A stretch of 64,000 bases of DNA, from NCBI GenBank assembly GCA_964016885.1, contig OZ024740.1, forward strand, positions 241,490,001-241,554,000, written 5' to 3'. Shown here one piece after another: positions 3,152-62,066 of this stretch; positions within the stretch are counted from its first letter, which is position 1, and each line of letters starts with the position of its first letter. Both the position numbers and the translations under genes were made by a program. The DNA comes from Eledone cirrhosa. Its lineage: Eukaryota. Under the pieces are notes generated by a model. That model searched no databases and was not told the origin of the DNA. It saw only the letters and a program-made list of their open reading frames with translations.

Positions 3152-4895
3152 TTAAGTCGTTTGGAAGCCTTGACAATGCAGATGGGTAAATCTCCGGGTA
3201 ACAAGATCCGGTGGTGGAGAGAGAGATGTAAGTGGGTGTACGTTGAGATGCGTGGCGTGTAGAAAACTGTAGCGTGTAGAAGAATGTAGGAAAGAGCGTA
3301 AATGATAAAAATAAAAATAAAAACAAAAACACGAAATAGAGTTACCTTGGGAGAGATTTAATTGCCCTATATATTTCGGATTCACATTCATCAACTAGGA
3401 TTTTTTGCAGGGGGGGGGGGGGGGGAGGTTGTCTGTCGGAAAGGTGCGAAACGTCTCCTCCGCTGTTCGTTGTTTTGAATATCTGAGGTATTCAGCAGAG
3501 CGCGCGTGCGCGTGAAATGTAGTCGGTCAAGCAGAGGTCAGCGGCCGAAATACTTCTTTCAATTGTGGGAGTGGGGTGGCGCTAGCTGTCAGTCCATAGT
3601 ATTCTCTGCCTGTTTGGTGAACGTTACCGTGTGTGTGTGTGTGTGTGCGTGTGTTGTTGTCTCGCTTGAGTGTGTGTGTGTGTTGTTGCCTTGTTCCTCT
3701 GTATTGGCAGTGTAGTATGTTCGTATGGTGGAATGCTACTGTGTGTGTGTGCGTGTGTTGCTGTCTCGCTTGTGTGTGTGTGTGCGTGTGTTGCTGCATC
3801 GTTTGTTAACTTAAACCAACCACCTCATGTCGCTTCTCTCGGATTGGTTGTTTAATTGTGGTCCTAGGCGTTTGATCCTTGATACGTACTGTGCCGACGT
3901 TTCTTTCTATCGCTAGAATTGTGACAATGGGCCTTCCGTCTTTGTTTCCGCATTTGGCTATGTGTTTCCGGAAAGACGAGGCCCTGGTTTTAGTGTGCTC
4001 CTTGATCCGGATGTGCAGCGGCCTGATTGTGCTCCCTATATAGTATTGGTTGCACTTGTTACATTCTATCTTATACACGACGTATGTGCGTAGGCAACAG
4101 TTCGCATGGCGCATCGGGCAGTGTCTGGGGGAGCACGCGTCAGTTGATTTCCCGGGTTTCCTAGAGAGATATCTTCGCAGGGAGGGGCCCCAGAGGGCCA
4201 GGTGGATGTCGAGGCCCTCCCTCGTATAGCCTTGCGGATAGCGTTGGTGGTATTCTCGCCCAGGTGTGGCATTTAAAGGAAGCACTTGCCTTGGGTGCCT
4301 CTCTGTCTCTTGTGTCTGGTGTCTCCTACTCTTTCTGCGAGCGAGGTAGGGTACCCGTTCGTCTCCAGCACCTCGAGGAATCGCTTGGTATGAGTGACAC
4401 CACTCGCGGGATCGCGGCATCTGTTTTTGATTCGCGCGATCTCGTTCGTGATGTATCCTCTTTTGGCACTGTTAGGGAGGGCGAACTTGTAGTGGACGAA
4501 CAGGTCCCTGCAGTCTGCCTTTCGGTAGAAGTTGCAGTGGATCCCTCCCTGCTCCGTGATGTTGATTTGGAAGTCGAGGAGGGCAAGTGACCCGTCGTCG
4601 TTAGGGTGTTCAACACTGAAATCAATATTCTCGTCCGTGTTGTTGAACGTCCCATAAATTCCGTTCGCCATCTCCTGGGAAGATGTGAGGATGAGGATGT
4701 CGTCTACGTACCTTGAGAAAAAGGCAACGGCGTTGGGGTGACAGGCATTGAGTGCCTTGCGCTCGAGGCTGTCCATGTAAGAGATCGCTAGCACACCCGA
4801 CAGGCTTGAGCCCATGGGCAGTCCCGAGGTTTGCTGGTATGTTTGGTCAAGGAATCCGAAGTAGGTGTTGTCGACGACGATGGATAGGAGTTGGT
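3150..4895 (-). mobile_element. 5'-truncated Penelope-like element (RT C-half plus GIY-YIG), frameshifted, between (TA)n tracts
   Basis: GLPMGSSLSG, RYVDD, LALLD, FYRK, NGYP (4273-4890) and VYKIECNKCNQYYIGSTIRPLHIRIKEH (3806-4270). Confidence 0.88.
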
Positions 4896-4924
4896 GTATA
4901 TATATATACAATATATATATACAT

Positions 4925-4987
<63 letters not shown>

Positions 4988-5250
4988 AGGCATGTATTGA
5001 GTTAGAAACTCAAAATAGTCTCATTACAGTAAATTAGCTCTAAGAAAAAAGCTTTTCCGAGCCGTATAGTATAACTGAACCAAAAAGAAAAACGAACATA
5101 GACATTTACATATATGTATTCACATCGTAATGGACCAGAATCGCTAAGGGGAAAAAAAATACTAACTACAGAAAATATGGTTTGTCAGACTCAAATTTAA
5201 GAATAAATGAAGAAAAATAAATACAAACCATAATTGTGATAACAACCGAA

Positions 5251-5332
5251 CACCCGGACAGTTATGATAGAAACTGTTTCGCAATTTTATTTGTGAAAAC
5301 GATTAACAAAGTCATCAGCCCATCAGCGAGTG
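5251..5332 (-). ncRNA. Hammerhead-like motif (A9G variant)
   Basis: CACUCG-CUGAUGG-long stem II-GAA-ACAGUU..AACUGU-C-CGGGUG. Confidence 0.55.
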
Positions 5333-5788
5333 AAGAAATTAGTAACGTTATCACTTCTAAATATAATTAGAAACCGGATAATGTGTGTATATGTAACCAT
5401 ATTGTCTGCACTTAATATTTTTTTCACCTTAGCGATTCTGGTCCCATTTGAACACATATCTGTAAATGTCTGTGTTCATTTTTCTTTTTTGTTCAGTTAT
5501 CATATATATATATATATATATATGGAAAAGGATGAAACGAAATTTCATTTCTCACTCTTAGTCCGGCTGATACTTAAATGTAAGTATGTACACCTACATA
5601 CATATATGAATACAAACGTACAGTAGTATGTATATATATACATACGTGTACACATATATATATATGCACGTATGGGGTTACCGATCATTTATCATAATGT
5701 TCGGTTTGTTTATAAACAAACAGCCCGAATTACGCCGTACAGTATTTGGAAACCATCGTCGCCTTTTTTGTTCAACACTGACATAGGA

Positions 5789-5831
5789 ACGATGTACTAG
5801 TTTCGAGCTTCTTAGCTATCGTCAGCATTGT
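5789..5831 (-). ncRNA. Hammerhead ribozyme, family E
   Basis: ACAAUG-CUGACGA-uAGCU..AGCUc-GAAACUAGUA-CAUCGU. Confidence 0.72.
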
Positions 5832-6166
5832 ATACCTTTCTGTCAGATGATTGAACGTTTGAAAGTATATACTTTCCTTATGCATATCAACGACTGAGCA
5901 GCCTAATTTGCATATCGAGTGAGTTAGTCGGCCGGGCGAACCGAAAACGATAAATGGAAAAGGATGAAATGAAATTTCATTTCTTACTCTGAGTACGGCT
6001 GATACTGTACGGCGTAATCGGGCTGTTTGTTTACAAACAAACCGAACATTATGATAAATGTTCGGTAAACCCATACGTGCATATATATATATGTGTACAT
6101 GTATGTATATATACACATACTAGTGTACGTCTGTATAGATATATGTATGTACGCGTACATACTTAC

Positions 6167-6332: not shown

Positions 6333-9139
6333 TATATATATATATCTATATTAATATAAATCGTTTTTATGTAAGGAATATTCAAAAGTGTGAGAGCACA
6401 CAATCAATAGAAGACGTCTGTAATATATAATGATTTATTTCACTATAGTCACTATAGTGTCATTGATACAATTTTTTCACCGAGAATCCAGATCTTCAGC
6501 CGTTAACACCATCATGCAATGATGGAACGATGTTCTTTTAAACGTAATATAATTGCACATATTATGTGAAACCCTACCTTTTCTAATTTATACTTATCGT
6601 AACGGAATGGTTTGCTGGCAGTTAGAGATTCTGAACCAGTGAAGGTTGTATTTTAACCGTTCAATCGAACAATGGTACAATGAAGATTTGTAAAACATTC
6701 TAAAGTTTCTCCCAGTGTCCATAGTTTACACAGAATTTTGATACACTAGTTTGAAACAAATAATCATTGAGCAGCTATGTTACGCCATTTGTTGCAAATA
6801 ATTAATGAGTGCAAAAGTTTCACATTTTCAAAATTAAATAGCTTCATTAGCGTACACTAGCAGAAAACCACCCTTAGGGTGGTTTTCTGCTAGCATGTGT
6901 AGTGTGTATATTGATATTATACGCAAATATATATGCATGTAGAAATGATATGTCAAATAAAATCGTAACTGACAATATCCATAGAAATGGAAGAGAGTCT
7001 GTGTTACACTTTCTTCTGTAATCAGTAAAGTAATCCATGATACATTAAAAAAGACGATATTATATATAAACTGCACTAGGAGAAAATTAGCGATGGAAAT
7101 ATATGCAATGTTTTTATAAGTGTTATAATATGACGGGCTCTAACCGGAAGTGTTGACATTTGAAAAATTTAAAGAAGTGAATCTTGAAATAAGCAATAAA
7201 ATTATTTATATTTAATCAAGAGTTACGAAATTTAGTACATAAATTATGTAATATCCATTCATTATTTATTCAAAGTAATCCCACTTATTTTACAAACGGG
7301 ATAAAAATATATATTCTGGACGCAGTCCCGCACTCCATTCTTTATTATAGTTAAGATTATTTATTTAACATTTAGGGCGGTGTATTAGCATTATTGGTAG
7401 ATATAGGCTTTGCCAATATATTAGCTTTGCCTTTCATCCTTACGGGGTCCATAAAATACCAGTAACGTACTGGGGTCGATTTAATCGACTTTCCCTTTCA
7501 CAGGCCTTGTGCCTAAATCAGAAACCATTATCTATTTAACGTTCTACGCGGAGCTTTGTAGCACTTCTTTCTTACAAATTAGATTTTCTGTCTCTTTTTG
7601 ATATATTTCTTGTTTGACTTTCGTTAAAATCTTATTACCGTTTATGAAAAGCCATATTTTCCCTTACGTATATCTTATCTTATATAGGTGTCATGATATA
7701 TCTATTCACCATTTATGGTGATATCTCTAACTAGTAAAATAAATCTAAATCAGGTAAATGCAGAGAATTAACTAAATGGCCATCACAATGATTAATTTCA
7801 GAATGCCAATATACAAATCTCATTAAACACCTGTTTGTTCTACCGAATTAGTGAAACGTTTCAACAAGATTTATAACATTTATATGGTTCAGTCTCCTGA
7901 ACCATACTGGAAATAATTTATGGCAGATCATTACGTCAAAATTGAATTCAAAGAATTTTGAAAATAATTGTTTCTAATTTTTGGCACAAGGACAGCAATT
8001 TGAAAGGAAGGGGGTGGGGGAGTCGATTAAATCAATCCCAGTGCGTTACTTGTACTATTTCATTTTATCGATCCCGTAAGGATGAAAGGCGAAGCTAACC
8101 TCGACAGGATTTGAACTCAGAACGTAAAGGCCTATAACTAAATGCTGCAAAGTATTTTGTCCGATGTTTCTGCCAATTCACCGCCCTATTTTGAAAATAA
8201 TGAATTTATATTTGTGGTACTTCAGAAAGAATTATATAAATGGTTTTTGACAGTATGAGTAAAAAGATTAGCGCACGCACGCACACACACACAGACACGC
8301 GTTCATGCACACGCACACACACGGACATATATAGACACACGAATTGATTGTTAAATTTGGGTACAAAAATAAGTTTAAATTCTATTTTTGAACCAAGACT
8401 TAAAACAATAAATAATTAAATTTGAACCAACATTTTCTTTACAAATATATTCCAGAACATTGTAGGTGTTGGATCTTTACTTACTTGAGCACGAAAACCT
8501 ATAGTGTATAAGCTTTATTTTGTTAACCGTCAAATACAGTATTTTATCTGATACTGATATCTTTTGTAGAATTATTTATAACTCGTTTTTTTCTTATGTA
8601 CAAATATCATAATTAGTGAATAATAGCCAACCTTGGTTACGGGTTTCTAAGGGGACAATAACTAGTTCACTATATTTCTGATGTTGAAAGTGATGACGAT
8701 GTAGAATTTTTATTTTATGTGACTTTGCTCGTAAAACATGAGTTTTTCTGGTTATTCGTAATGTTTATCGTTTACTGGCATACATCTTCAAAATTCGAGC
8801 GCATGCACACCTACTCGCATACTCATAAACATAGAAGACAGGTTTCCAGACAGTTTTTGTTGACCAAATTCCACTCGCAAAATACTGCTCAACTCAACAT
8901 TATTGAAGACATATGCTCAACATACTCATAAACATAGAAGACAGGTTTCCAGACAGTTTTTGTTGACCAAATTCCACTCGCAAGATACTGCTCAACTCAA
9001 CATTATTGAAGACAATCCGGAACCACATAGTCGCTAAGTGAATAACCTACGGTAAGAGAACATTTCAAAATGTTTAATTTGCCGTAATTTGCATCAGAAC
9101 CTTTGTAGAGAAGTAGGTGAAATAGTTAAAAGAAATTAC

Positions 9140-21594: not shown

Positions 21595-23630
21595 GTTTTC
21601 CGGTTTTAGTCGCCAACGACTCGACCATGCACAGGTTGTACTGGATTACAAGTTACCAGTAGCACTGAAGAGCGATGGGTCAAAGGGCGGAGGAACTCAG
21701 GAGAGTCAACGGCCATCCAATAAAATATTTATTTTGTGGAGCGAGAGACTCCTATTTTTCATTAAGACATCTCTCTAGGAGAAAGTCGCTCTTATATAAA
21801 ACCTGCGACTTCGTAATCATCCAATGATGTAGACCAGTTCTATTTTTTTGGTAAATGCATTCCTCACTTAAAAAAACCTTTCCTCACTTAAAACAGTTTC
21901 AAGCACAGACATCGCTTAATATGTGAAATATTTTGTGATGCATGGTATTGCTGGCCATAGGCAAGTCCTTAGCAGGACTAAAAATCCATACCGTGATGCT
22001 CATGCTTAAGTGATGGTATTACTCGAAATCGAGTTGCAGTCATCATCATGTATGTATGTATGTATGTATGTATGTATGTATGTATGTATGTATGTATGTC
22101 AGGTCACCAGTGGTGCTACTGGTAACATGTATCCCAGTACAACCTGTCTCATGGTCGGGTCGTTGGCGACTAAACTGGCAACCCCATCAAGGTTTCTTGG
22201 TGAGGAGGGTGACTTTGGACATCCTGCAGGACTAAAAACAAAACCTGTCAAAGGGCAAAGGAGCTCTTAAGAGTCAATGGCCATCCAAAATCACCGGGAG
22301 AGATGACCCCTTAGCCTTTGTCAAGGCAGAATTCTAGGAGAAGGACAACTCTGATATAACACCTGCAACCCTAATGGTATCCAATGATGTTGACTTGTTC
22401 TTCTTTTTGGTAAATATCATCTTGGTTAAGAGAGTGGGACTGGTTTTGTGCAGTGCCTTTGCTCACCATAAAAGCTTCACGGCACAGGCATTGCTTTAAA
22501 TCTGGAGATCTCTCTGCACTTGTCATATGGTACCATGGGCCTAGCACTATGTGTCAATAATTGTCACAAGTGTAGTGTTTGTACCAGAGTTTTCAAGTCG
22601 CTGGCTGGACTAAAAAGTCACACTTGTTTAGCGCATCAGTAGGGGTTCTCCTACATGGATATAAAGTAGTGGCCGTACTCGAAAACGAGTTGGCAGCCAC
22701 CATGTATGTATGTATGTATGTAAGGGCAAAGGAGCTCTTAAGAGTCAATGGCCATCCAAAATCACCGGGAGAGATGACCCCTTAGCCTTTGTCAAGGCAG
22801 AATTCTAGGAGAAGGAAAACTCTGATATAACACCTGCAACCCTGATGGTATCCAATGATGTTGACTTGTTCTTCTTTTTGATAAATATCATCTTGGTTAA
22901 GAGAGTGGGACTGGCTTTGTGCAGTGCCTTTGCTCACTATAAAAGCTTCACGGCACAGGCATTGCTTTATATCTGGAGATCTCTCTGCACTTGTCGTCAC
23001 ATGGTACTATGGGCCCAGCACTATGTGTCAATAATTGTCACAAGTGTAGTGTTTGTGCCAGAGTTTTCATGTCGCAGGCTGGACTAAAAAGTCACACTCG
23101 TTCAGCGAATCAATAGGGTTTCTCCTACATGGATATAAAGTAGTGGCCATACTCGAAAACGAGTTGGCAGCCACCATGTATGTATGTATGAATCAATGGC
23201 CATCCAAAATCACCCGGAGAGATGACCCCTTAGCCTTTGTCAAGGCAGAATTCTAGGAGAAGGAAAACTCTGATATAACACCTGCAACCCTGATGGTATC
23301 CAATGATGTTGACTTGTTCTTCTTTCTGGTAAATATCATCTTGGTTAAGAGAGTGGGACTTCCTTTGTGCAGTGCCTTTGCTCACTATAAAAGCTTCACG
23401 GCACAGGCATTGCTTTATATCTGGAGATCTCTCTGCACTTGTCGTCACATGGTACCATGGGCCCAGCACTATGTGTCAATAATTGTCACAGGTGTAGTGT
23501 TTGTACCATAGTTTTCAAGTCGCTGGCTGGACAAAAAAGTCACTCTCGTTCAGCGCATCGGTAGGGGTTATCCTACATGGATATAAAGTAATGGCCGTAC
23601 TCGAAAACGAGTTGGCAGCCACCATACATG
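21595..23630 (+). mobile_element. Cluster of RTE-associated short elements, including three tandem ~470-bp units
   Basis: Units at about 22250-22715, 22723-23190 and 23191-23625 each end cagccaccat(gtat)n; shared 5' leader at 22102, with an inverted copy at 21601-21677. Confidence 0.8.
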
Positions 23631-23675
23631 CATGTATGCATGCGTGCATACGTGCATGTGTGCATATTTGCAATG

Positions 23676-28800: not shown

Positions 28801-28921
28801 GCTTCATCAGATGATCCTTGAGCAAAACATTCCAGATGGACATCTTCACCAATTGAAGGTTGGTTCGGAAAGGCAGCAATAAAGTCATTGTGAATAACAG
28901 GACCCCAATTTACTTTAGAAG
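28801..28921 (-). CDS. Contactin-like exon, Ig3 N-half (not in ORF track)
   Basis: ttcacAG|...|GTaaga, 121 nt, phase 1-2; PSKVNWGPVIHNDFIAAFPNQPSIGEDVHLECFAQGSSDE. Confidence 0.88.
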
Positions 28922-29145
28922 CTGTGAACACAACATGGAAATAAAGAAAAGAAATATGTGCACATATATATATATATACGTATATATATAAATAATATAG
29001 AAATGATTTCTATATGATTAAAACGTATTGTATATTTAATAATATACTGTATGTTTATTTAAAAACATTTTGAAGGTCATTCGCTATGAATTTTAAGGTA
29101 GTGTCTAACGTCACATACCTAGTCTCGGCAAAAGCAAAGAGGAAT

Positions 29146-29189
29146 AATCGACAGTCACAGTTTCTCACTTGTAAGTTGTTGTCAAGACC
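29146..29189 (-). ncRNA. Hammerhead-like motif with U3-A8 core, at a hairpin apex
   Basis: GGUC-UUGACAA-caACUUacAAGUga-GAAAC..GUC-GAUU. Confidence 0.55.
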
Positions 29190-29377
29190 ACATACCTCTT
29201 CTCTTTTGGCGAGACTAGGTATGTGACGTTAGACACTACCTTAAAATTCATATTGAATGGCCTTCAAAAAAACATACAGTATATTGTTAAATATACAATA
29301 CGTATCTTCATATATACATCGCTATTTCAGAGCACCAATACTATATATTTATATAAATATAAGATCCCCCCCAACAC

Positions 29378-29443
<66 letters not shown>

Positions 29444-35400: not shown

Positions 35401-35681
35401 GAACCAACAACCGACGCTACGGCTAATATTCAGACACATATTTATAAGCTGGTTTGTCCTACATTCTTTATAAAGTATAATAATTGTTTCTACTTTAGGC
35501 ACAAGGCCAGCAATTACCCAGTGAATTACTGGTACTTTATTTTATCGACCCCGTAAGGATGAAAGGCAAAGTCAACCTCGGTGGAATTTGAACTCAGATC
35601 GTAAAGGGACGTAACTATGCTGGAAAGCATAATATAAAGTATAAACATAATGCAATATCATGTTATAAAAAGATCACTTAC

Positions 35682-36014
35682 ATGCGAAAGATAATTGAAC
35701 GATATTACCCAAAACTTTGCCAAATTCATTTTCAGCGCTGCACTGATAATACCCTGCATCGTGAATACCAACTGGTTTGTGAATTGTAAGCTTTCCATTG
35801 GTCAGTGTATAGCGAAAATCTATAGTAGAGGTCACTGACACCCAGCTGTTGCCTTGAGCCCGATGCCATTTATACACTGGCTTTGGATTAGCCTCAGCCA
35901 CACATTCAAGAAATACGGAAGGCCAGGACTCAATGATTACTGTATCTACTGCATCGATAGTAATGTTGGGACCTTTAAGTATCTCATTTCGGTCTTTCAC
36001 CGGCTTGCCGTAAT
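35682..36014 (-). CDS. Contactin-like Ig cell-adhesion protein, exon encoding Ig1 (first exon recognised here; upstream exons not found)
   Basis: ttttaattgatAG|...|GTaagt, 333 nt, phase 1-1; DYGKPV...FLECVAEANPKPVYKW...GKLTIHKP...DAGYYQCSAENEFG...VQLSFA is an I-set Ig domain typical of invertebrate contactins. Confidence 0.9.
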
Positions 36015-36191
36015 CTATCAATTAAAAGCAACAAATCAAAAGTAATACAGAGACATTATTTTTTCAATAGCATTGAAAATCTTTTAGTACATGAAGGTTA
36101 CGAAAAGATTCTCTCCCTCTCTCCCTATATATATATATATATATATATATACGATATTAATAAATGGAAACTATATTTATAAAACCATATT

Positions 36192-36256
36192 TATTTCATT
36201 ATACATATTTCAGGGATACCAAATTAAATTATGGTATGCCTTCATCAGACAAAATA
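36192..36256 (-). ncRNA. Hammerhead ribozyme, family A
   Basis: UAUUUUGU-CUGAUGA-AGGcAUACCA..UGGUAUcCCU-GAAAUAUGUAUA-AUGAAAUA. Confidence 0.78.
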
Positions 36257-39399: not shown

Positions 39400-40790
39400 A
39401 AAGTAAGTTATGTGGTAATCTTTGTTGTTCTTTTTTCTGTCCAATATTTCGGGACCTAAAAGTCCCTTCATCAGGATTTAAGGAACCTTCAGTGGATAAC
39501 ATTCCAATTTTCTCTCTTTGGGATTAGATTTTAATTTTGATTTAAATTTTTTCGAAGTCATTTTCAAGCGTTTTTTTATGATTATTTCGCTTTTCACGAG
39601 AATGACGTCCATTGACAATATAGTATTGCGCGAAATTAATTTTGGCTTTTGTATGAGATGTTTAGTTTGAGTGTCTCTGGGTGTGTCTTTTTATGTTAAG
39701 TACTGTGTGCTGAGTTGTAATCTATTATTTATTTGCGGGTTGAGTCTACGTATGAGGAAGGCTTCCTTAATTCTTAAATTACCCATATTCTATCACTAGC
39801 TTTAATAGTAACGGTAAAATGTTGGTTGATGTTGCTACATTTGTCGATGTGTTTTTTTAATGATGATGCATGTGTGTTGAGGTGTTCTTTAATGCGAGTG
39901 TGGAGTGCTCGAGTTGTGCTACCAATGTAGAAGTCCTTACATTTGTTGCATTCAATCCGGTATACCACATGTGTCCGCTGGCACATACCTGTATCGCGGA
40001 TAGCGCAGTTAGTCAGCGAGCATTGATTGTTGTTGTCTCTGGACAACCGCTTTTTAGACAGGTATCCACACAGTGAAGGGCCGGAGTGTGTTAATTGTAT
40101 GTCCAGTCCTTCTTTGCGGATAGCTGTGGTTATGCTTTCGCTGAAATGTGGTAATTTCATGAAGCAGGTGCTGGAGGACGCCTTCTGTCTGCGGCGCCTT
40201 CGATTCTTAAGTCGATTCACTGTGGATGTTGGGTATCCGTTCGTCTTCAGTGCATCTATGAAGTGTGCAGTGTGAGTGAGCTGGTCTTGCTGCATTTATT
40301 CCGGATACGAATAAATTCATTTCTTATGTATCCAGTTTTAGCACCAAGGGGGAGAGCTCATCTATAATGCACAAACAAGTCTCTTCTGGCAGCTCCGCTA
40401 TAGAAGTTGGTGTATTGAGTACCTTCTGATACTCTAAGTTGGAAGTCTAGCAGAGACAAGGAACCATTTTTATCGGGGTGTTCTGTGGTAAATCGTATAT
40501 TGTTATCTGTGTTTGAAAACACTGTAGATATTATGTCGGCCTCTTCACGGGATGATGTGAGGATTAGTATATCATCTATATATCGGGTGAAGAAAATACA
40601 GGCTAGGCAGGTGTTGAGCACTCAACGTTCCAGTTGGTTGATATAGGTAATGGCTAGAAGTCCTGAAAGACTGGGCTCCATGGGAAGGCCTGTTGTTTGT
40701 TTGTATGTGTAGTGTTCAAAAGTGAAATATGTATTTTCTACGATGACGGATAGAAGCTGATATATGTCTTGCGGAGTGAGGTCGAAGCTA
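39400..40790 (-). mobile_element. Degenerate Penelope-like element related to the 3150-4895 copy
   Basis: GLPMEPSLSG, RYIDD, LSLLD, NGYP, VYRIECNKCKDFYIGSTTRALHTRIKEH spread over three frames; HHR-like motif downstream at 39440-39478. Confidence 0.85.
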
Positions 40791-40919
40791 TATATTTTGT
40801 ATGAAATGATGCAGACAGTCACTAGGGTTGACCGCTGGCGGGTACTGTCATTTAGAGGGAGACAACGTCGAAGCTAAAGGCATATCTGTTGAGTTTAAGT
40901 TGGTTATATATATATATGT

Positions 40920-44290: not shown

Positions 44291-44464
44291 GTTATTCCGG
44301 GTTGAATCGGAGGTAACCACAGTAAGTAAGGTACTCAATACATTGCAGAGTATAAAAGTTTTAATATAGATGAGATTCTACCGGACCAGAACTGTTTCAT
44401 TCCTCAGAAATCATCAGGTGATGATTTCTAAAGAATGAAACAGCTCCAGTCCTGCAGAATCTCA

Positions 44465-44544
<80 letters not shown>

Positions 44545-45950: not shown

Positions 45951-46572
45951 ATAAATATATATATATATAAATATAAATATATATATAAATATATATAAAT
46001 ATATATATATATAAATATACATATATATAAATATATATATATATATCGTTTCTGAATTTGTTTAGCAAGATTCTTTATCTGAAATCGTGTGTTCAAACCG
46101 ATATTGTTGTTCTTTGGGAGGGTCATGTTGCCAATAAATTGAAGTGAACCAACTGGTGCGTGTGTTTCTTATTGGCAACATGACCCTCCCAAAGTATAAC
46201 AATATATATATATATATATATATATAAATATAAATATATATATAAATATTTATATATATATATATAAATGTAACTATGTATACGTACATACATATATGTA
46301 TACAGACGTACAGTAGCATGTATATATATATATATATACATACAGGAACATATATATGCACGTATCTCTGGCAGAAAGGTATACGGTGCTGACGATAGCT
46401 AACAAGCTTAAAACTAGTACATCGTCATGTGTCAGTGTTGATCAAAAAGGTGACGTGTTTTCCTAACACTGTACGGCGTAAATCAGGCTGTTCGTTTGTT
46501 TACAAACGAACAAAGCGATCATTATAATAAATGTTCGGTAAACTGATACGTGAATATATATATGTGTGCCTG

Positions 46573-46669
<97 letters not shown>

Positions 46670-46777
46670 GCTACTGTACGTCTGTATACATATATGTATG
46701 TACGTATACATACATACTTACATTTAAGTAAGTGCCGTACTAAGAGTGAGAAATGAAATTTCGTTTCATTCTATTCC

Positions 46778-46945: not shown

Positions 46946-47152
46946 CAATATATACCAGTTTTATAAATAAACATTGACGTACCCTTTCAAAATGCAACCG
47001 TTACTTTTGGAAGACATCAGGATAGTTTTGTGTGTGTGTTTGCATGCGTAGTTTTATTTTATTTTTCCTTTCCTTCTCCCTTCTCCAGCCTCACTTTCAT
47101 ATAGATTGCATTTTTGGTTTTGTAATCCAAATTCAATAAACAAACCAGCTTT

Positions 47153-47212
47153 TTCCGTTCTGATGATTGAAAGCAAAACCTTTTGCTTTTAAGAAACCAC
47201 TGGTAAATGGAA
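47153..47212 (+). ncRNA. pLTR hammerhead ribozyme (identical copy at 51473-51532; diverged copy at 50034-50093)
   Basis: UUCCGUU-CUGAUGA-UUGAAAGCAAA..UUUGCUUUUAA-GAA-ACCacuGGU-A-AAUGGAA. Confidence 0.85.
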
Positions 47213-47528
47213 TAATTGCCTTATGTTGTTTATTACATAATTGTTTCTACTTTAGGCACAAGGCCAGCAATTACCCAGTGCATTACTGGCACTTTATTTT
47301 ATCGACCCCGTAAGGATGAAAGGCAAAGTCAACCTCGGCGGGATTTGAACTCAGATCGTGCTCTGTTGCCTACTCTTTTTTCCTGGACTTTTCCGATGGA
47401 ATTACTTGATTTATACAGCTCCAACCGGGATTGATCGCAGCATATTCTATATTACATATACGATTGGCACTTTCCAGCCCGATTAGTTGAGCACTCTACA
47501 GTTTTCAGGAATTTAACCAACATACACC

Positions 47529-50908: not shown

Positions 50909-51653
50909 CTTATATTTATTTGCGTGTGTGAATATGTAGAGGAGTGCATTCATGTATGTGTATGTATGTACGTTTTGTATGTTTGTGTGAATGTATGTAT
51001 GTGTATATATATGTGTGTGTGTATGGCTATGTTTGTGTATGTGTATGCTTGTACACACACATGTGTATGTGTGTGTATGTGTATGTGTGTATATGTATAT
51101 ATATGTATATATATATATATATATGTACATATATATATGTGTGTGGATATGTGCGTGTGTGTGTGTGTGTGTGTGTGTGCGCGTGTGTGTATATGTATTA
51201 ATGTATGTATGTGTATATGTGTGTATATATGTGTTTGTGTAGGTAAGTGTACGTTTTATATATATGTGTATATGTATATATGTGTGCGTACACACACATA
51301 TATATATGTATATATGTATGTGTGTGTAAGTATGCTTTTGGGTTTTTTTGTGTGTGTGTTTGCATGCGTAGTTTTATTTTATTTTTCCTTTCCTTCTCCC
51401 TTCTCCAGCCTCACTTTCATATAGATTGCATTTTTGGTTTTGTAATCCAAATTCAATAAACAAACCAGCTTTTTCCGTTCTGATGATTGAAAGCAAAACC
51501 TTTTGCTTTTAAGAAACCACTGGTAAATGGAATAATTGCCTTATGTTGTTTATTACATAATAATAATAATTAAGCTCTGTTGCCTACATAGAGCACTCTT
51601 TTTTCCTGGACTTTTCCGATGGAATTACTTCACACATATATATATATACAAAT

Positions 51654-52074: not shown

Positions 52075-55000
52075 TAAATATAATAAATAACAAAGAACGC
52101 CTATAGCATATGCATATCTTTACTTGCTAACATTGTTTCATCCGCACTATAAGTGGGACTCATCAGAGCATAAAGGTTAATTACATACCATACAAGCAAT
52201 AACAAATCCAAGACATTGAAGAATGAAAAATAATAATAGACGATAAAGGATATTAAGGAAGTAAAAGTAAAAATAAAGATAAGAATAAAAATAAAAATAA
52301 AAATAAAAATAAAAATAAAAATAAAAATAAAAATAAAAATAAAAATAAAAATAAAAATAAAAATAAAAATAAAAATAAAAATAAGATAATAAAATAAACA
52401 ATGAAAAATAAGCAATGAAAAATAAGGGGTGCTATCAGTCACAGTTGGGCGGGGTGCTGTCAACATATAGTTACATACAAGCATACACATGGATAAGAGA
52501 ACAGACAAGAGTAGATAAGATAGATGGGATTAGGTAAGAGTAGGTAAAAAATAGGTGAAAAACAGACTTATAATATATATAAGAAAATATAAAGAAATAC
52601 ATAACAAACTTACATATAAAATATAAAATATACAGATAATAGTGATACAGGGTAAGGAATGAGATAAAATAATATAAAATTAAAATTAAAATTATATAAA
52701 ATAGAACATAATATAATATAATCGTAAAATAAGATAAAATAAGGTAAACTAAAATCAAATAACATAGACTAAATTAAAATAATATAATATAAGATATAAT
52801 TAAGTCTAATTAATAGCAATAGAGGTGTCGTGAACGGGAGGTTTCTGGATGCCGGTGGAATGAACCAGCAGGGCACCATTAGTCTAAGTAATAGCAATGG
52901 TAGGCCTCGCAGCTCCCCGCATAGACTAGGTGAGCATAGGAACCGTAGAAATAATAATGCTAATAATACTGATGGAAATAGAAAGAATAAAAAGAATAGA
53001 AGATTGAATACATACTTCAACTCCCCTTTTAATTCTGAAGTGGCTATAAATATTCCTAGGGCCTTCTTCTCTGTGTTAGAAAGGAACTTCCCTCCTGGTA
53101 ATAGGTACCACTCTATCCTCAATAAGAATATTGTTAAACTTTCGTATTCTACAACCCAAAATCTGGCCTCTCATCTGGCCATTACTAATAATAAGAAAAT
53201 AAAGGAAGGCCTGGACAACCTAAGCCTAGGGGAAAACACGGTAGTGGACAGTGGGCAGAAACACAAGTGGTGATCATTCTGAGAATAGCATCACCAGAGG
53301 TTGTAACTGTAGAAGGGCTTCAGGCTTCCCCCTGAATGGTTTCTGCCTTGTTAGAAACATAGTTTATGCGTGTGATGTAGTAACTACGGCGTCCACTAAG
53401 ACCTATATAGGATCAACCTCCACCCCCTTTAAGACCAGGTTTAACTCTCACCAATGCACTTTTAGACATAATAAACTGAGGAACTCCACCTCCTTGGCAG
53501 CGTACGTCCATAATTTAAAAAATGCACGAACACATTACACACTTACTTGGCGGCAGGTTGCTAAATCCCATCCATATACTCCTCATAATAGAGTATGTAA
53601 CCTATGCCTTGCCGAATCCCACTCTATTATATTTGCTAAATGCCCTCTACTAAATAGAAAGTCTGAAATATTTTCCTCTTGCCCCCACCGGATATTAAGC
53701 TCTTTCTTCTACTTTAAACCTGTTAGCTAGCACTTCCTTATTCCTCCAGTTGGGCTGTCTTGTGTAACTGTCTCTGACTGTGTGTAACTGTCTCCTATTG
53801 TTGGTCGTCTATGTATACGAGTCGGTGAATGTATACGTATGCCTGTGGGAGGATATTGATCTGGATATTGGGATGTGCAGGTGAGCGGGTGTGTATGTTA
53901 ATAAGCACCCCTGTTTGGCACAGTGGATGTAACCCATCCACGCTCGCCTACCCACCATTGGTGCATTGGTGGGTCTATCCTGACGTATATCTTGTTGATC
54001 TGTACCTCTGTATGCGCATGAGTTGTGATGTAATGTATTTATGTAAAGCGTGTACTGCGATTTAGGCTGCACTAATAGAAATTTAGCCTGTAACTGTGGG
54101 CGGACCCGTGCCATCCCGCCGTAAGCAGTGGATACGTGGCGCATGTACGTGTTGCCCTCATATTCTGTGGTTTAAGATCTACAGGCTGACCTCTGGGAGC
54201 TCTTGCCCGGGGTTGTAGTCTTTCTAGCACGATCGGCCTTCCATATATTAACGGTCGTTGTTATGATCCCGAAAGTAACGTTTTGGCCCCGATAGCCCTC
54301 CGTAGTTACTAACGGTCTGTGTACACTTGAATCGGGCAATGGCACGTGCGGACATGAATATCTCCGTGGGATTTCAACTTTATTTTACTACATCTCATCG
54401 TATGTATTTATTTTGAATGTATTACCTGTGGTGGTGGGTCTGGTCTAATGTGGTATTTCGGTGTTTAATATCAGCTTTGACCCGGGTGTCCTACGCTGTG
54501 TGTGTGTGCGTGTGTGTCCGTGTATACATTTATATGTGTATGGGTGTAGGTGGTTGTATATGTCTGTATATAAAAAAAAAAATATATATATATATGTATA
54601 CCGTCTCTGCATATGCATGTGGTGTGTATATGTGCATATACGTGCTGAACATATTGATGTGCACAATCTTGTGATGTCCCAATGCGGTGACTTAATGGCT
54701 CTTGAAGCTATTTTTTATATATCTTCTGTCCTTTTATATATCTTTTGTATGCGCTACAACTGTGTCTGCTTGCTTTGGCTAACCCGCCTGCACCTCGCTT
54801 GCTAATGCACGTGAATTCTTCTACCTCCTTCGATGCACCTCTCTCTGACCATTGGACTCCTGCCCGGGTGTGAACCGGTTTGTGATTATCCCACCGCTCA
54901 ACTGTGTGAATGCACACCCGTGACTTTCGAGTGAACTTTTGAGACTGCCCAACCTGGATCGCCTCCATTGCCTTGCAATGGTCAAGTGATACTGGGGACT

Positions 55001-55232
55001 GTGACACTTAGTGCCTCCGTGGGCCCCTGATGTTTTCAAGAAATATACTTTAAAAAAATGGTCAAGTGATACACATAACTGTGACACTTAGTGCCTTCGT
55101 GGGCCCCTGATATATTCAAGAGATATATTCTAAAAAAATATATATCTTATCTCAATTTACTTTATTTCATTTTATTTTATTTTATTTCATTTCATGTTAT
55201 CTAATTTTATTTATTTACTTATTTAACTCCAT

Positions 55233-55264
<32 letters not shown>

Positions 55265-56020
55265 ATTTAAATTTTAATTTTATTTATTTATTTAATTTTT
55301 ATTTATTTATTTATTTATTTATTTAATTACATTTAATTACATTTAATTATACATTTAATTATATCTTATATTATATTATTTTAATTTAGTCTATGTTATT
55401 TGATTTTAGTTTACCTTATTTTATCTTATTTTACGATTATATTATATTATGTTCTATTTTATATAATTTTAATTTTAATTTTATATTATTTTATCTCATT
55501 CCTTACCCTGTATCACTATTATCTGTATATTTTATATTTTATATGTAAGTTTGTTATGTATTTCTTTATATTTTCTTATATATATTATAAGTCTGTTTTT
55601 CACCTATTTTTTACCTACTCTTACCTAATCCCATCTATCTTATCTACTCTTGTCTGTTCTCTTATCCATGTGTATGCTTGTATGTAACTATATGTTGACA
55701 GCACCCCGCCCAACTGTGACTGATAGCACCCCTTATTTTTCATTGCTTATTTTTCATTGTTTATTTTATTATCTTATTCTTATTTTTATTTTTATTTTTA
55801 TTTTTATTTTTATTCTTATCTTTATTTTTACTTTTACTTCCTTAATATCCTTTATCGTCTATTATTATTTTTCATTCTTCAATGTCTTGGATTTGTTATT
55901 GCTTGTATGGTATGTAATTAACCTTTATGCTCTGATGAGTCCCACTTATAGTGCGGATGAAACAATGTTAGCAAGTAAAGATATGCATATGCTATAGGCG
56001 TTCTTTGTTATTTATTATAT
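52075..56020 (+). mobile_element. 5'-truncated Naiad-type Penelope-like element with an inverted copy of its 3' repeat at the 5' end
   Basis: 52830-53730 encodes YFNSPFN..VKLSYS, GCNCRR..PL...C, IVYAC...YIGST..FKTRFNSH, CNLCLAE, LLNRKSE; about 52075-52815 is the reverse complement of about 55350-56020; HHR in each repeat. Confidence 0.88.
55928..55973 (+). ncRNA. pLTR hammerhead ribozyme (inverted copy at 52125-52170 -)
   Basis: UGCU-CUGAUGA-GUCC..GGAU-GAAACaauGUU-AGCA. Confidence 0.78.
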
Positions 56021-58373: not shown

Positions 58374-59637
58374 TTTGGATTTAATGCTCTGAAATAGCGA
58401 TATATATGTGAAGACAAACAGAATATTCGAAAATATTCTGTATGTTTATAATAAACATTTTGAAGACCCAATCGCTATAGAATAGAATACGTCACGTATT
58501 ACAATTTGAGATTCTCGATAAAAGCAAGGGAAGTAATCTACGCGTTTCATTCTTATTAGAAATCATCAGGATTACATATCCAATGCTTTTATCGAGAACG
58601 ACACAGCTAGAGACTTATAGAATACTTAGCTGTGTACAGGAACTGGTTTGAAAGAGCGGTAGCCGGTCCGGCAGAAATTAGAATTTGGATTTAATGCTCT
58701 GAAATAGCGATATATATGTGAAGATAAACATAGAATATTCGAAAATATTCTGTATGTTTATAATAAACATTTTGAAGACCCAATCGCTATAGAATAGAAT
58801 ACGTCACGTATTACAATTTGAGATTCTCGATAAAAGCAAGGGAAGTAATCTACGCGTTTCATTCTTATTAGAAATCATCAGGATTACATATCCAATGCTT
58901 TTATCGAGAACGACACAGCTAGAGACTTATAGAATACTTAGCTGTGTACAGGAACTGGTTTGAAAGAGCGGTAGCCGGTCCGGCAGAAATTAGAATTTTG
59001 ATTTAATGCTCTGAAATAGCGATATATATGTGAAGACAAACATAGAATATTCGAAAATATTCTGTATGTTTATAATAAACATTTTGAAGACCCAATCGCT
59101 ATAGAATAGAATACATCACGTATTACAATTTGAGATTCTCGATAAAAGCAAGGGAAGTAATCTACGCGTTTCATTCTTAATTCTAAACGTGTAGATTACT
59201 TCCCTTGCTTTTATCGAGAATCTCAAATTGTAATACGTGACGTATTCTATTCTATAGCGATTGGGTCTTCAAAATGTTTATTATAAACATACAGAATATT
59301 TTCGAATATTCTATGTTTGTTTTCACATATATATCGCTATTTCAGAGCATTAAATCCAAATTCTAATTTCTGCCGGACCGGCTATCGCTCTTTCAAACCA
59401 GTTCCTGTACACAGCTAAGTATTCTATAAGTCTCTAGCTGTGTCGTTCTCGATAAAAGCATTGGATATGTAATCCTGATGATTTCTAATAAGAATGAAAC
59501 GCGTAGATTACTTCCCTTGCTTTTATCGAGAATCTCAAATTGTAATACGTGACGTATTCTATTCTATAGCGATTGGGTCTTCAAAATGTTTATTATAAAC
59601 ATACAGAATATTTTCGAATATTCTATGTTTGTCTTTC
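58374..59637. repeat. Tandem plus inverted ~311-bp HHR repeat (retrozyme-like)
   Basis: Units start at 58374, 58684 and 58996; orientation flips at about 59180. Confidence 0.9.
59469..59511 (+). ncRNA. Hammerhead ribozyme, family G (minus-strand copies at 58533-58575 and 58845-58887)
   Basis: GUAAUC-CUGAUGA-uUUCUaauaAGAAu-GAAACGCGUA-GAUUAC. Confidence 0.85.
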
Positions 59638-60033
59638 TATATATATATATATATATAAATATATATATTTATATATATGGAAAGTTATATTTAAAATTGT
59701 TGGGTTACAACTAGTAAATATTTATAACTGATATAAAAGCACTCGACAAATATTTGGAGTATATTTACAATATTAAATAAATGGAAACTATATTTATAAA
59801 ACCATATTTATTTCATTATATATATTTCGGGGATATCATATTAACAATATGCTATGCCTTCCTCAGACAAAATACAATATAAACAGTTTTATAGATAAAT
59901 ATATTCGACATACCGTTATAAACACCGACTTCCATTTGGAGAGGTTTACGCCGCCAGCGTAAACCTCTCCAAATGGAAGTCGGTGTTTATAACGGTATGT
60001 CGAATATATTTATCTATAAAACTGTTTATATTG

Positions 60034-60099
60034 TATTTTGTCTGAGGAAGGCATAGCATATTGTTAATATGATATCCCCGAAATATATATAATGAAATA
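60034..60099 (+). ncRNA. Hammerhead ribozyme, family A (mirror copy at 59809-59874 -)
   Basis: CUGAGGA core, GAAAUAUAUAUA, same stem I. Confidence 0.7.
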
Positions 60100-61169: not shown

Positions 61170-62066
61170 GGTAAAAATGAAACGAAATTTCTTTTCCCAC
61201 TCTTAGTACGGCTGTTACTTAAATATAAGTATGTACACGTACATACATATATGTATGCAGACGTACAGTAGTACGTATATATATATATATATACATACAT
61301 GCACACATATATATATGTACGTATGGATTCACCGAACATTTATTATAATGCTCGGTGTGTTTGTAAACAAACATCCCGTATTAAGCCGTAGTGTCCACCA
61401 ACCATCGTTGCTCGTTTGTTCAACACTGACAAAGGAACGCTGTACTAGTTTCAAGCTTATTAGCTATCATCAGCAACGTATACCTTCCTGCCAGATTGTT
61501 GAACGTATATACTTACCTTATGCATATTAACGGCTGAGTAGCTCAATTTGCATATCGAGTGGGTTAATCGGCCGGTGCACCGAAAACGATAAATGGTAAA
61601 AATGAAACGAAATTTCATTTCCCACTCTTAGTACGGCTGTTACTTAAATATAAGTATGTACACGTACATACATATATGTATGCAGACGTACAGTAGTATG
61701 TATATATATATATATACATACATGCACACATATATATATGTACGTATCGATTCACCGAACATTTATTATAATGCTCGGTGTGTTTGTAAACAAACATCCC
61801 GTATTAAGCCGTAGTGTCCAGCAACCATCGTTGCTCGTTTGTTCAACACTGACAAAGGAACGCTGTACTAGTTTCAAGCGTATTAGCTATCATCAGCAAC
61901 GTATACCTTCCTGCCAGATTGTTGAACGTATATACTTACCTTATGCATATTAACGACTGAGTAGCTCAATTTGCATATCGAGTGGGTTAATCGGCCGGGT
62001 GCACCGTACTAAGAGTGGGAAATGAAATTTCGTTTCATTTTTACCATTTATCGTTTTCGGTGCACC
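61166..62066. repeat. Tandem ~424-bp HHR repeat with short inverted tail (family E; also 5522-6170 and 46260-46780)
   Basis: Units start at 61166 and 61591; 62005-62066 is an inverted copy of the unit junction. Confidence 0.88.
61437..61479 (-). ncRNA. Hammerhead ribozyme, family E (tandem copy at 61860-61902)
   Basis: ACGUUG-CUGAUGA-uAGCU..AGCUu-GAAACUAGUA-CAGCGU; palindromic ACUAGU stem III. Confidence 0.78.

Follow-up and report, generated by a model that had tools for sequence, protein, structure and literature searches.

A worn hammerhead repeat forms a head-to-head inverted pair in an intron of Eledone cirrhosa and is probably a non-autonomous Penelope-like insertion

Introduction

Why does a hammerhead ribozyme motif with a U3-A8 core pair sit in the loop of a long fold-back inside an intron, and does it act on the transcript that carries it? 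We followed up a preliminary description of such a motif, made from the letters alone, in a window of 64,000 nucleotides from Eledone cirrhosa (assembly GCA_964016885.1, contig OZ024740.1, positions 241,490,001 to 241,554,000 of the forward strand). All coordinates below are positions within this window.

Several known systems bear on the question. Animal non-LTR retrozymes have been defined and tied to Penelope-like elements (PMC7229834; 10.64898/2026.07.22.740005). Penelope-like elements are reported to target microsatellites and to leave inverted 5′-truncated copies, with palindromic head-to-head junctions that were attributed to self-priming (PMC3846280, PMC8557442), and a Penelope-like protein is reported to cut AT-rich DNA, extend both strands, and insert in vitro without ribozyme cleavage (PMC11167929). 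The U3-A8 pair has been described in about 1,300 Penelope-like motifs of Schistosoma mansoni (Cercyon-type), where pairs of motifs on opposite strands were also reported (PMC4209133), and natural U3-A8 variants are reported with activity in vitro cited (PMC3088659).

Results

Geometry of the fold-back

The minus strand of 28990-29350 folds as a single long hairpin (-170.1 kcal/mol, z -23.9, with 0 of 100 shuffles equally stable), bearing out the fold-back of the preliminary description, and the plus strand also gives one long hairpin (z -19.0). The parts of the insertion and its host exon are as follows.

28801..28921, minus strand: host exon of 121 nt, downstream of the element, placed by its splice signals
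28952..28999, no strand: AT microsatellite bordering the insertion on the left
29023..29127, minus strand: left arm, the 3′ tail of the repeat unit in the ribozyme sense, with a decayed trace to about 29001
29128..29209, minus strand: type I hammerhead including its natural extended stem I; this is the fold-back's "loop"
29210..29334, plus strand: right arm, an inverted 5′-truncated copy of the left-arm tail, ending in the family 3′ motif at 29318-29333
29340..29440, no strand: AT-rich, (GT)n and (AT)n DNA bordering the insertion on the right

The duplicated arms run over 29023-29127 and 29210-29303, with 90 matches, 4 mismatches, and one gap of 11 nt, and they contain 43 bp without a mismatch (29085-29127 and 29210-29252), which is the near-perfect block quoted earlier. 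Fainter similarity reaches about 29005 and 29320 outside these arms. The arms had been drawn at 29010-29143 and 29195-29320; their outer part is indeed duplicated, but the inner part (about 29128-29143 and 29195-29209) is the ribozyme's own extended stem I, since the sister repeat described below has a natural 16-pair stem and no fold-back there. The perfect block begins at the base of this stem, and both 3′ tails face outward, which makes the structure an inversion set head to head at the 5′ end. Its outer ends differ from each other and show no target duplication by eye, where the microsatellite flanks could mask a short one. AT-rich or microsatellite DNA flanks the insertion on both sides, a weak test of class as such tracts are common in the window; general repeat finders run on the window were likewise dominated by microsatellites. 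MicroRNA matches to the hairpin fell far under their cut-offs and were rejected.

Homology to a sister repeat

A sister repeat, family G, lies in the same window.

58374..59635, no strand: family G, head-to-tail units of 310-312 bp, with C3-G8 hammerheads at 58569 (minus), 58881 (minus), and 59475 (plus) and a fold-back centred on 59178

Family G aligns with the fold-back element across the extended stem I, the core, and the 3′ tail, with the cores in register, so that the flank likeness first noted against the 58374 unit is homology. The right arm scores 123 against family G, and 300 shuffles score 62 +/- 6 with a maximum of 83. A 16-nt 3′ motif occurs five times against 0.03 expected, and only in the fold-back element and four G units. 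As had been proposed, related families carry both core pairs: U3-A8 in the fold-back element and C3-G8 in family G. Rfam gives a weak HH9 match at family G, 22.1 bits, below the cut-off of 52. The array itself doubles back over 58721-59635 (445 matches, 6 mismatches), turning at about 59178 inside helix II of a hammerhead.

The hammerhead motif

On the minus strand, the loop holds a type I hammerhead in which no core letter is missing, as the preliminary description had suspected: the 3-8 positions are paired (U3-A8), and G12-A15.1 and U16.1-C17 are all present.

29186..29191, minus strand: stem I 5′ strand, pairing with 29149-29144; 6 pairs, 3 of them G-U in the fold-back copy
29185 (U3) to 29179 (A9), minus strand: core U3 U4 G5 A6 C7 A8 A9, read from the sequence
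29165..29178, minus strand: helix II, C-A and A-G mismatches and then 3 pairs; the second mismatch is the copy's rare letter at 29177
29164-29161, minus strand: G12 A13 A14 A15.1
29150..29164, minus strand: helix III and cleavage site, A-U, C-G, U-U mismatch, G-C, and a 3-nt loop; U16.1 at 29151, C17 at 29150

The predicted cut falls between 29150 and 29149. A strict descriptor, with a stem I of at least 6 pairs, found 15 C3-G8 motifs and 1 U3-A8 motif in the window and none with other letters at 3 and 8; on 60 shuffles it gave no C3-G8 match and a U3-A8 match in 1. The core had been described as "again" U3-A8, but no second such motif in the window passed the descriptors, and a looser U3-A8 scan added just two matches, at 7958 and 38956, each with a stem I of only 4 bp.

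Local Rfam scans of the fold-back gave no hammerhead at E up to 10, and over the whole window none was among the matches listed (150 of 201). The covariance model R1, built from 3 of 5 sequences, all C3-G8 (the 47160 and 42981 motifs aligned poorly), does not detect the fold-back hammerhead at E up to 5 and additionally fails on motifs 867, 36248, and 59866. Pattern scans of metagenomes gave 0 matches.

Helix I closes the motif, with stem I pair probabilities of 0.89-0.96 in the hairpin context. The lowest-energy fold of this copy pairs the core with the cleavage triplet, and reaching an active-competent fold takes 8.3-8.5 kcal/mol; six other motifs of the window need 1.1-7.3, which makes this copy the costliest of the seven tested. 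Helices II and III have probabilities near 0 in the fold-back copy and are also low in the family G control (0.13-0.15 and 0), and the fold-cost test is soft because ViennaRNA under-predicts both helices in family G too. Little or no RNA cleavage is predicted for this copy.

The repeat family in reads and contigs

Sequence records from four of seven listed runs were aligned to 29005-29215 at 80% likeness, a procedure that favours window-like copies. They number 1458 in X1 (contigs of organism A), 455 in X4 (contigs of organism B), and 695 and 658 in X5 and X6 (RAD reads of two more A samples, mostly from a few loci), so that all four runs contain records of what is a multi-copy family in two organisms. 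In each of the four, loose ends before 29023 run on into the family 3′ end. Summing contig depth in X1, which gives no measure of copy number, yields about 128,000 for the tail and about 1,100 for the core, and this ratio of about 100 to 1 is the pattern of heavy 5′ truncation.

Twelve joints were listed, of which eight switch strand, two skip, and two go back; the last are tandem joints of the family, both from organism B, and the fold-back copy itself is not tandem. The strand switches fall at varied places, most of them linking 29058-29087 with 29122-29214. One contig of A and one of B have a near-identical strand-switch joint, 29060/29061 to 29182, either an old shared insertion or a recurring junction.

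The records also show how far the fold-back copy has departed from its family. The majority letter differs from the window at 29177 (1068 of 1143 depth in X1, 152 of 182 in X4, 42 of 42 reads in X5, 83 of 84 in X6), at 29159 (223 of 251 depth in X1), at 29189 (507 of 530), and at 29144 (831 of 911), in each case in most or all runs, and at 29153 a differing letter makes up about half of the contig depth. Each of these five family letters makes a Watson-Crick pair from a mismatch or a G-U in helix I, II, or III, those at 29159 and 29153 together replacing the U-U of helix III, and the majority letters restore one pair each in helices II and III. About four rare letters fall within the 48 nt of the ribozyme (29144-29191), while the arms show 4 differences in 94 positions; part of the changes may be older than the insertion, or the arms may have been homogenised. 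The rare letters all lie outside the core, a number too small to be meaningful as a sign of selection on it, and we set that idea aside.

No difference row falls at 29179-29185 among the 40 listed of 101, where shares of about 25-30% do appear. U3-A8 therefore appears to be the majority, family state in both organisms, as inferred from 40 of the 101 rows, whose ranking rule is not stated, in an alignment that favours window-like copies. It could instead be that U3-A8 drifted in this single copy from a C3-G8 ancestor. The 15 C3-G8 motifs among the 16 strict matches of the window, the several other rare letters of the copy, the decay of a C7-G8 CpG as a possible source of A8, and the partial listing of rows would all fit such drift. 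We consider it improbable, as 29185 and 29180, with an X1 depth of about 1,100, do not figure among the rows listed, and the two changes are exactly compensatory. A divergent X6 copy (71 reads, probably one locus, loose end at 29181) also keeps U3 and aligns through A8, with one core letter missing.

Both arms carry a letter at 29104 that is absent from 95% of X1 depth, which fits arms copied from one template, and they share minority letters at 29038, 29076, and 29097 as well.

These data also bear on whether the structure could be a hammerhead-capturing miniature inverted-repeat DNA transposon, or an artefact of assembly. Long inverted arms around a short middle would suit such readings, but family G repeats head to tail the linear unit whose 3′ tail makes up the arms. 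The unequal outer ends lack the matched termini of such a transposon and show no visible target duplication, the mismatches and gap between the arms do not fit a copying artefact, and a 431-nt contig of X4 matches 29078-29212 and runs on without a listed joint at that place. We find both origins highly improbable.

The host intron

The element lies within a minus-strand intron of 2.09 kb (31011-28922). The acceptor AG is at 28923-28922, about 227 nt beyond the predicted cut, so the earlier placement on the pre-mRNA strand roughly 225 bp from an acceptor was accurate. Three neighbouring exons and an exon at 9077 match Pfam as Ig domains, the exon at 35677-36021 has contactins as its best match (E 1e-30), and the protein atlas returned Ig-domain clusters from mixed animal phyla. 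Exon 28801-28921 has no Pfam match of its own, and we infer its contactin identity from its phase and the neighbouring Ig exons.

Could the motif be an active intronic ribozyme under selection, which cuts contactin pre-mRNA ahead of the acceptor and tunes splicing or output? Its sense orientation and intact core letters would suit that role, as would the long hairpin that locks stem I, and U3-A8 is reported active in vitro (PMC3088659). The rare letters, however, break pairs of helices II and III, in the predicted fold the core is paired to the cleavage triplet, the active fold costs about 8.4 kcal/mol, and hammerhead repeats occur on both strands throughout the window. One of them, a sense-strand C3-G8 hammerhead at 36248 (minus), lies about 200 nt before the acceptor of the contactin-like exon near 36017, which indicates that such a placement is not unique to the fold-back element. 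We give the selected-ribozyme reading very little credence. The effect on contactin pre-mRNA hinted at earlier has nothing to support it: at helix positions this copy differs from its family, and of the seven motifs it has the poorest fold. A role in contactin splicing is likewise unsupported.

Other hammerheads and Penelope remnants in the window

Five further fold-backs bear hammerheads (831-981, 44369-44466, 58721-59635, 59828-60080, and 61574-62066), and two of these turn inside the ribozyme. The preliminary description had treated the hairpin with a ribozyme as remarkable; five more in the window, and published cases in Penelope-like elements (PMC3846280, PMC8557442, PMC4209133), make it less so.

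These other copies are varied. The fold-back at 44369-44466 turns in the hammerhead core itself and is related to the 42981 motif. Head-to-head hammerhead pairs at 831-981 and 59828-60080, the latter with arms identical over 123 bp, belong to an AT-rich family with a long helix II that also occurs at 36248, 46937, and 62802. A further C3-G8 family lies in tandem and inverted pieces at 61170-62066, 5525-6077, and 46367-46776, and its copy at 46383-46425 has lost G12. Identical 174-bp copies at 47047-47220 and 51367-51540, with an 11-pair helix II and a stable helix III, gave the best-folding motif tested and are likely to be a young, active type. The window also has a large inverted repeat around a unique middle (52095-56003), a short palindrome (2138-2217), and a tandem array with units of about 470 bp (22252-23641).

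Remnants of Penelope-type reverse transcriptase (RT) with GIY-YIG are found at 3809-5001 and 39777-40873, and their database relatives carry both domains. The broken elements span 3809-5330 and 39470-40873 (minus); upstream of the first there is a hammerhead-like core at 5318, and downstream of the second a minimal core of this kind at about 39474. Within the window, no DNA likeness was detected between these remnants and the family of the fold-back element.

Discussion

Our preferred explanation, which we hold to be probable, is that the element is a hammerhead repeat present as a head-to-head inverted intronic pair: a worn, non-autonomous Penelope-like insertion, or non-LTR retrozyme, with an inherited U3-A8 pair and predicted poor or no cleavage. 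It builds on direct observations: the hairpin and its motif, homology to family G, the many related copies in two organisms, and the RT/GIY-YIG remnants. Features shared with the retrozyme class are a short, non-coding, multi-copy unit with a type I hammerhead, 5′ truncation, and an inverted 5′-truncated copy.

Such an insertion could have arisen as follows. A Penelope-type RT/GIY-YIG protein, acting in trans, would nick AT-rich DNA, and target-primed reverse transcription would proceed from the 3′ tail of the RNA through the hammerhead. The cDNA end may then have halted in the 5′ strand of the extended stem I and folded over to pair with the stem's 3′ strand, and extension of the snapped-back cDNA on itself would yield the second, inverted tail. 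Later substitutions would have weakened helices I, II, and III. The mobilising partner in this scheme is putative, as the remnants of the window share no DNA likeness with the family.

The junction at the stem's base and the shared letter at 29104 make a snap-back on the extended stem I the favoured reading at this locus. For the snap-back step alone there is a rival within the same element class, in which each arm was primed on an RNA of its own, at one of the two target-DNA ends, and the arms were joined by annealing of stem I strands. Purified Penelope-like protein, a predicted dimer, is reported to cut and extend both strands (PMC11167929), and the 4 differences in 94 positions plus the 11-nt gap between the arms, together with the mostly asymmetric strand-switch joints of other copies, would agree with two-end priming. 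Against this, the arms share the rare 29104 letter and the minority letters at 29038, 29076, and 29097, which two RNAs from one source locus would also explain. We regard two-end priming as rather unlikely and retain the snap-back for this copy. It is not a general rule, because strand switches in other copies are mostly asymmetric and scattered. That the extended stem I primes second-strand synthesis, and that a U3-A8 lineage of two species seeds introns with ribozyme-capped hairpins of 100 bp, is a doubtful proposition.

The intronic hammerheads of amniotes are conserved single-copy motifs. The fold-back element shares with them (RF02275, HH9) a type I fold inside an intron; unlike them, it is one worn copy of a repeat and has no HH9 match. 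The resemblance to reported non-LTR retrozymes includes low-GC non-coding units of about 300 bp with one type I hammerhead (PMC7229834; 10.64898/2026.07.22.740005), tandem copies (as in family G) beside scattered monomers, and an intronic position, 44% of copies being in introns in Xenopus tropicalis (10.64898/2026.07.22.740005). A mismatch at the base of helix II recalls the axolotl retrozyme HHR_Amex2. It differs from the retrozymes so described in being an inverted pair rather than a tandem, and its family differs in the U3-A8 pair, the C-A base mismatch, and a longer helix III.

The inverted 5′-truncated pseudo-LTR copies of Penelope elements offer a close reported match in arrangement, with a head-to-head inversion at the 5′ end, a palindromic junction, 5′ truncation, a microsatellite target, and no clear target duplication (PMC3846280, PMC8557442). 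Unlike the endonuclease-bearing Penelope copies in those accounts, the fold-back element has no ORF and turns at the base of the ribozyme's extended stem I. The U3-A8 pair, another feature first singled out as remarkable, was already published for Penelope-like elements: the Cercyon-type motifs of S. mansoni likewise have the compensatory pair throughout a repeat family (PMC4209133), and natural variants with it are reported too (PMC3088659). The S. mansoni motifs are described as minimal, with a long helix II and no helix III, whereas the fold-back family has a helix I of 6 bp, a short helix II, and a real helix III.

A literature search, run other than by organism and outside repeat libraries and supplements, found no paper on the fold-back family or on priming by stem I. 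Both the arrangement and the core variant have thus been described for Penelope-like elements, and measured against the accounts cited here, the hammerhead retrozyme family itself is new.

In conclusion, this locus adds a hammerhead retrozyme family in which sister families differ at the 3-8 pair and a U3-A8 core occurs with a full helix III. Neither C3-G8 descriptors nor Rfam pick up families of this kind, and hammerheads in animal genomes may therefore be undercounted. If stem I does act as a primer, the hammerheads of Penelope-type elements would gain a structural job in integration, apart from cleavage, and if young fold-back turns cluster at ribozyme helices, both the origin of the inverted repeats and the purpose of hammerheads in Penelope-like elements would become testable from genomes alone.
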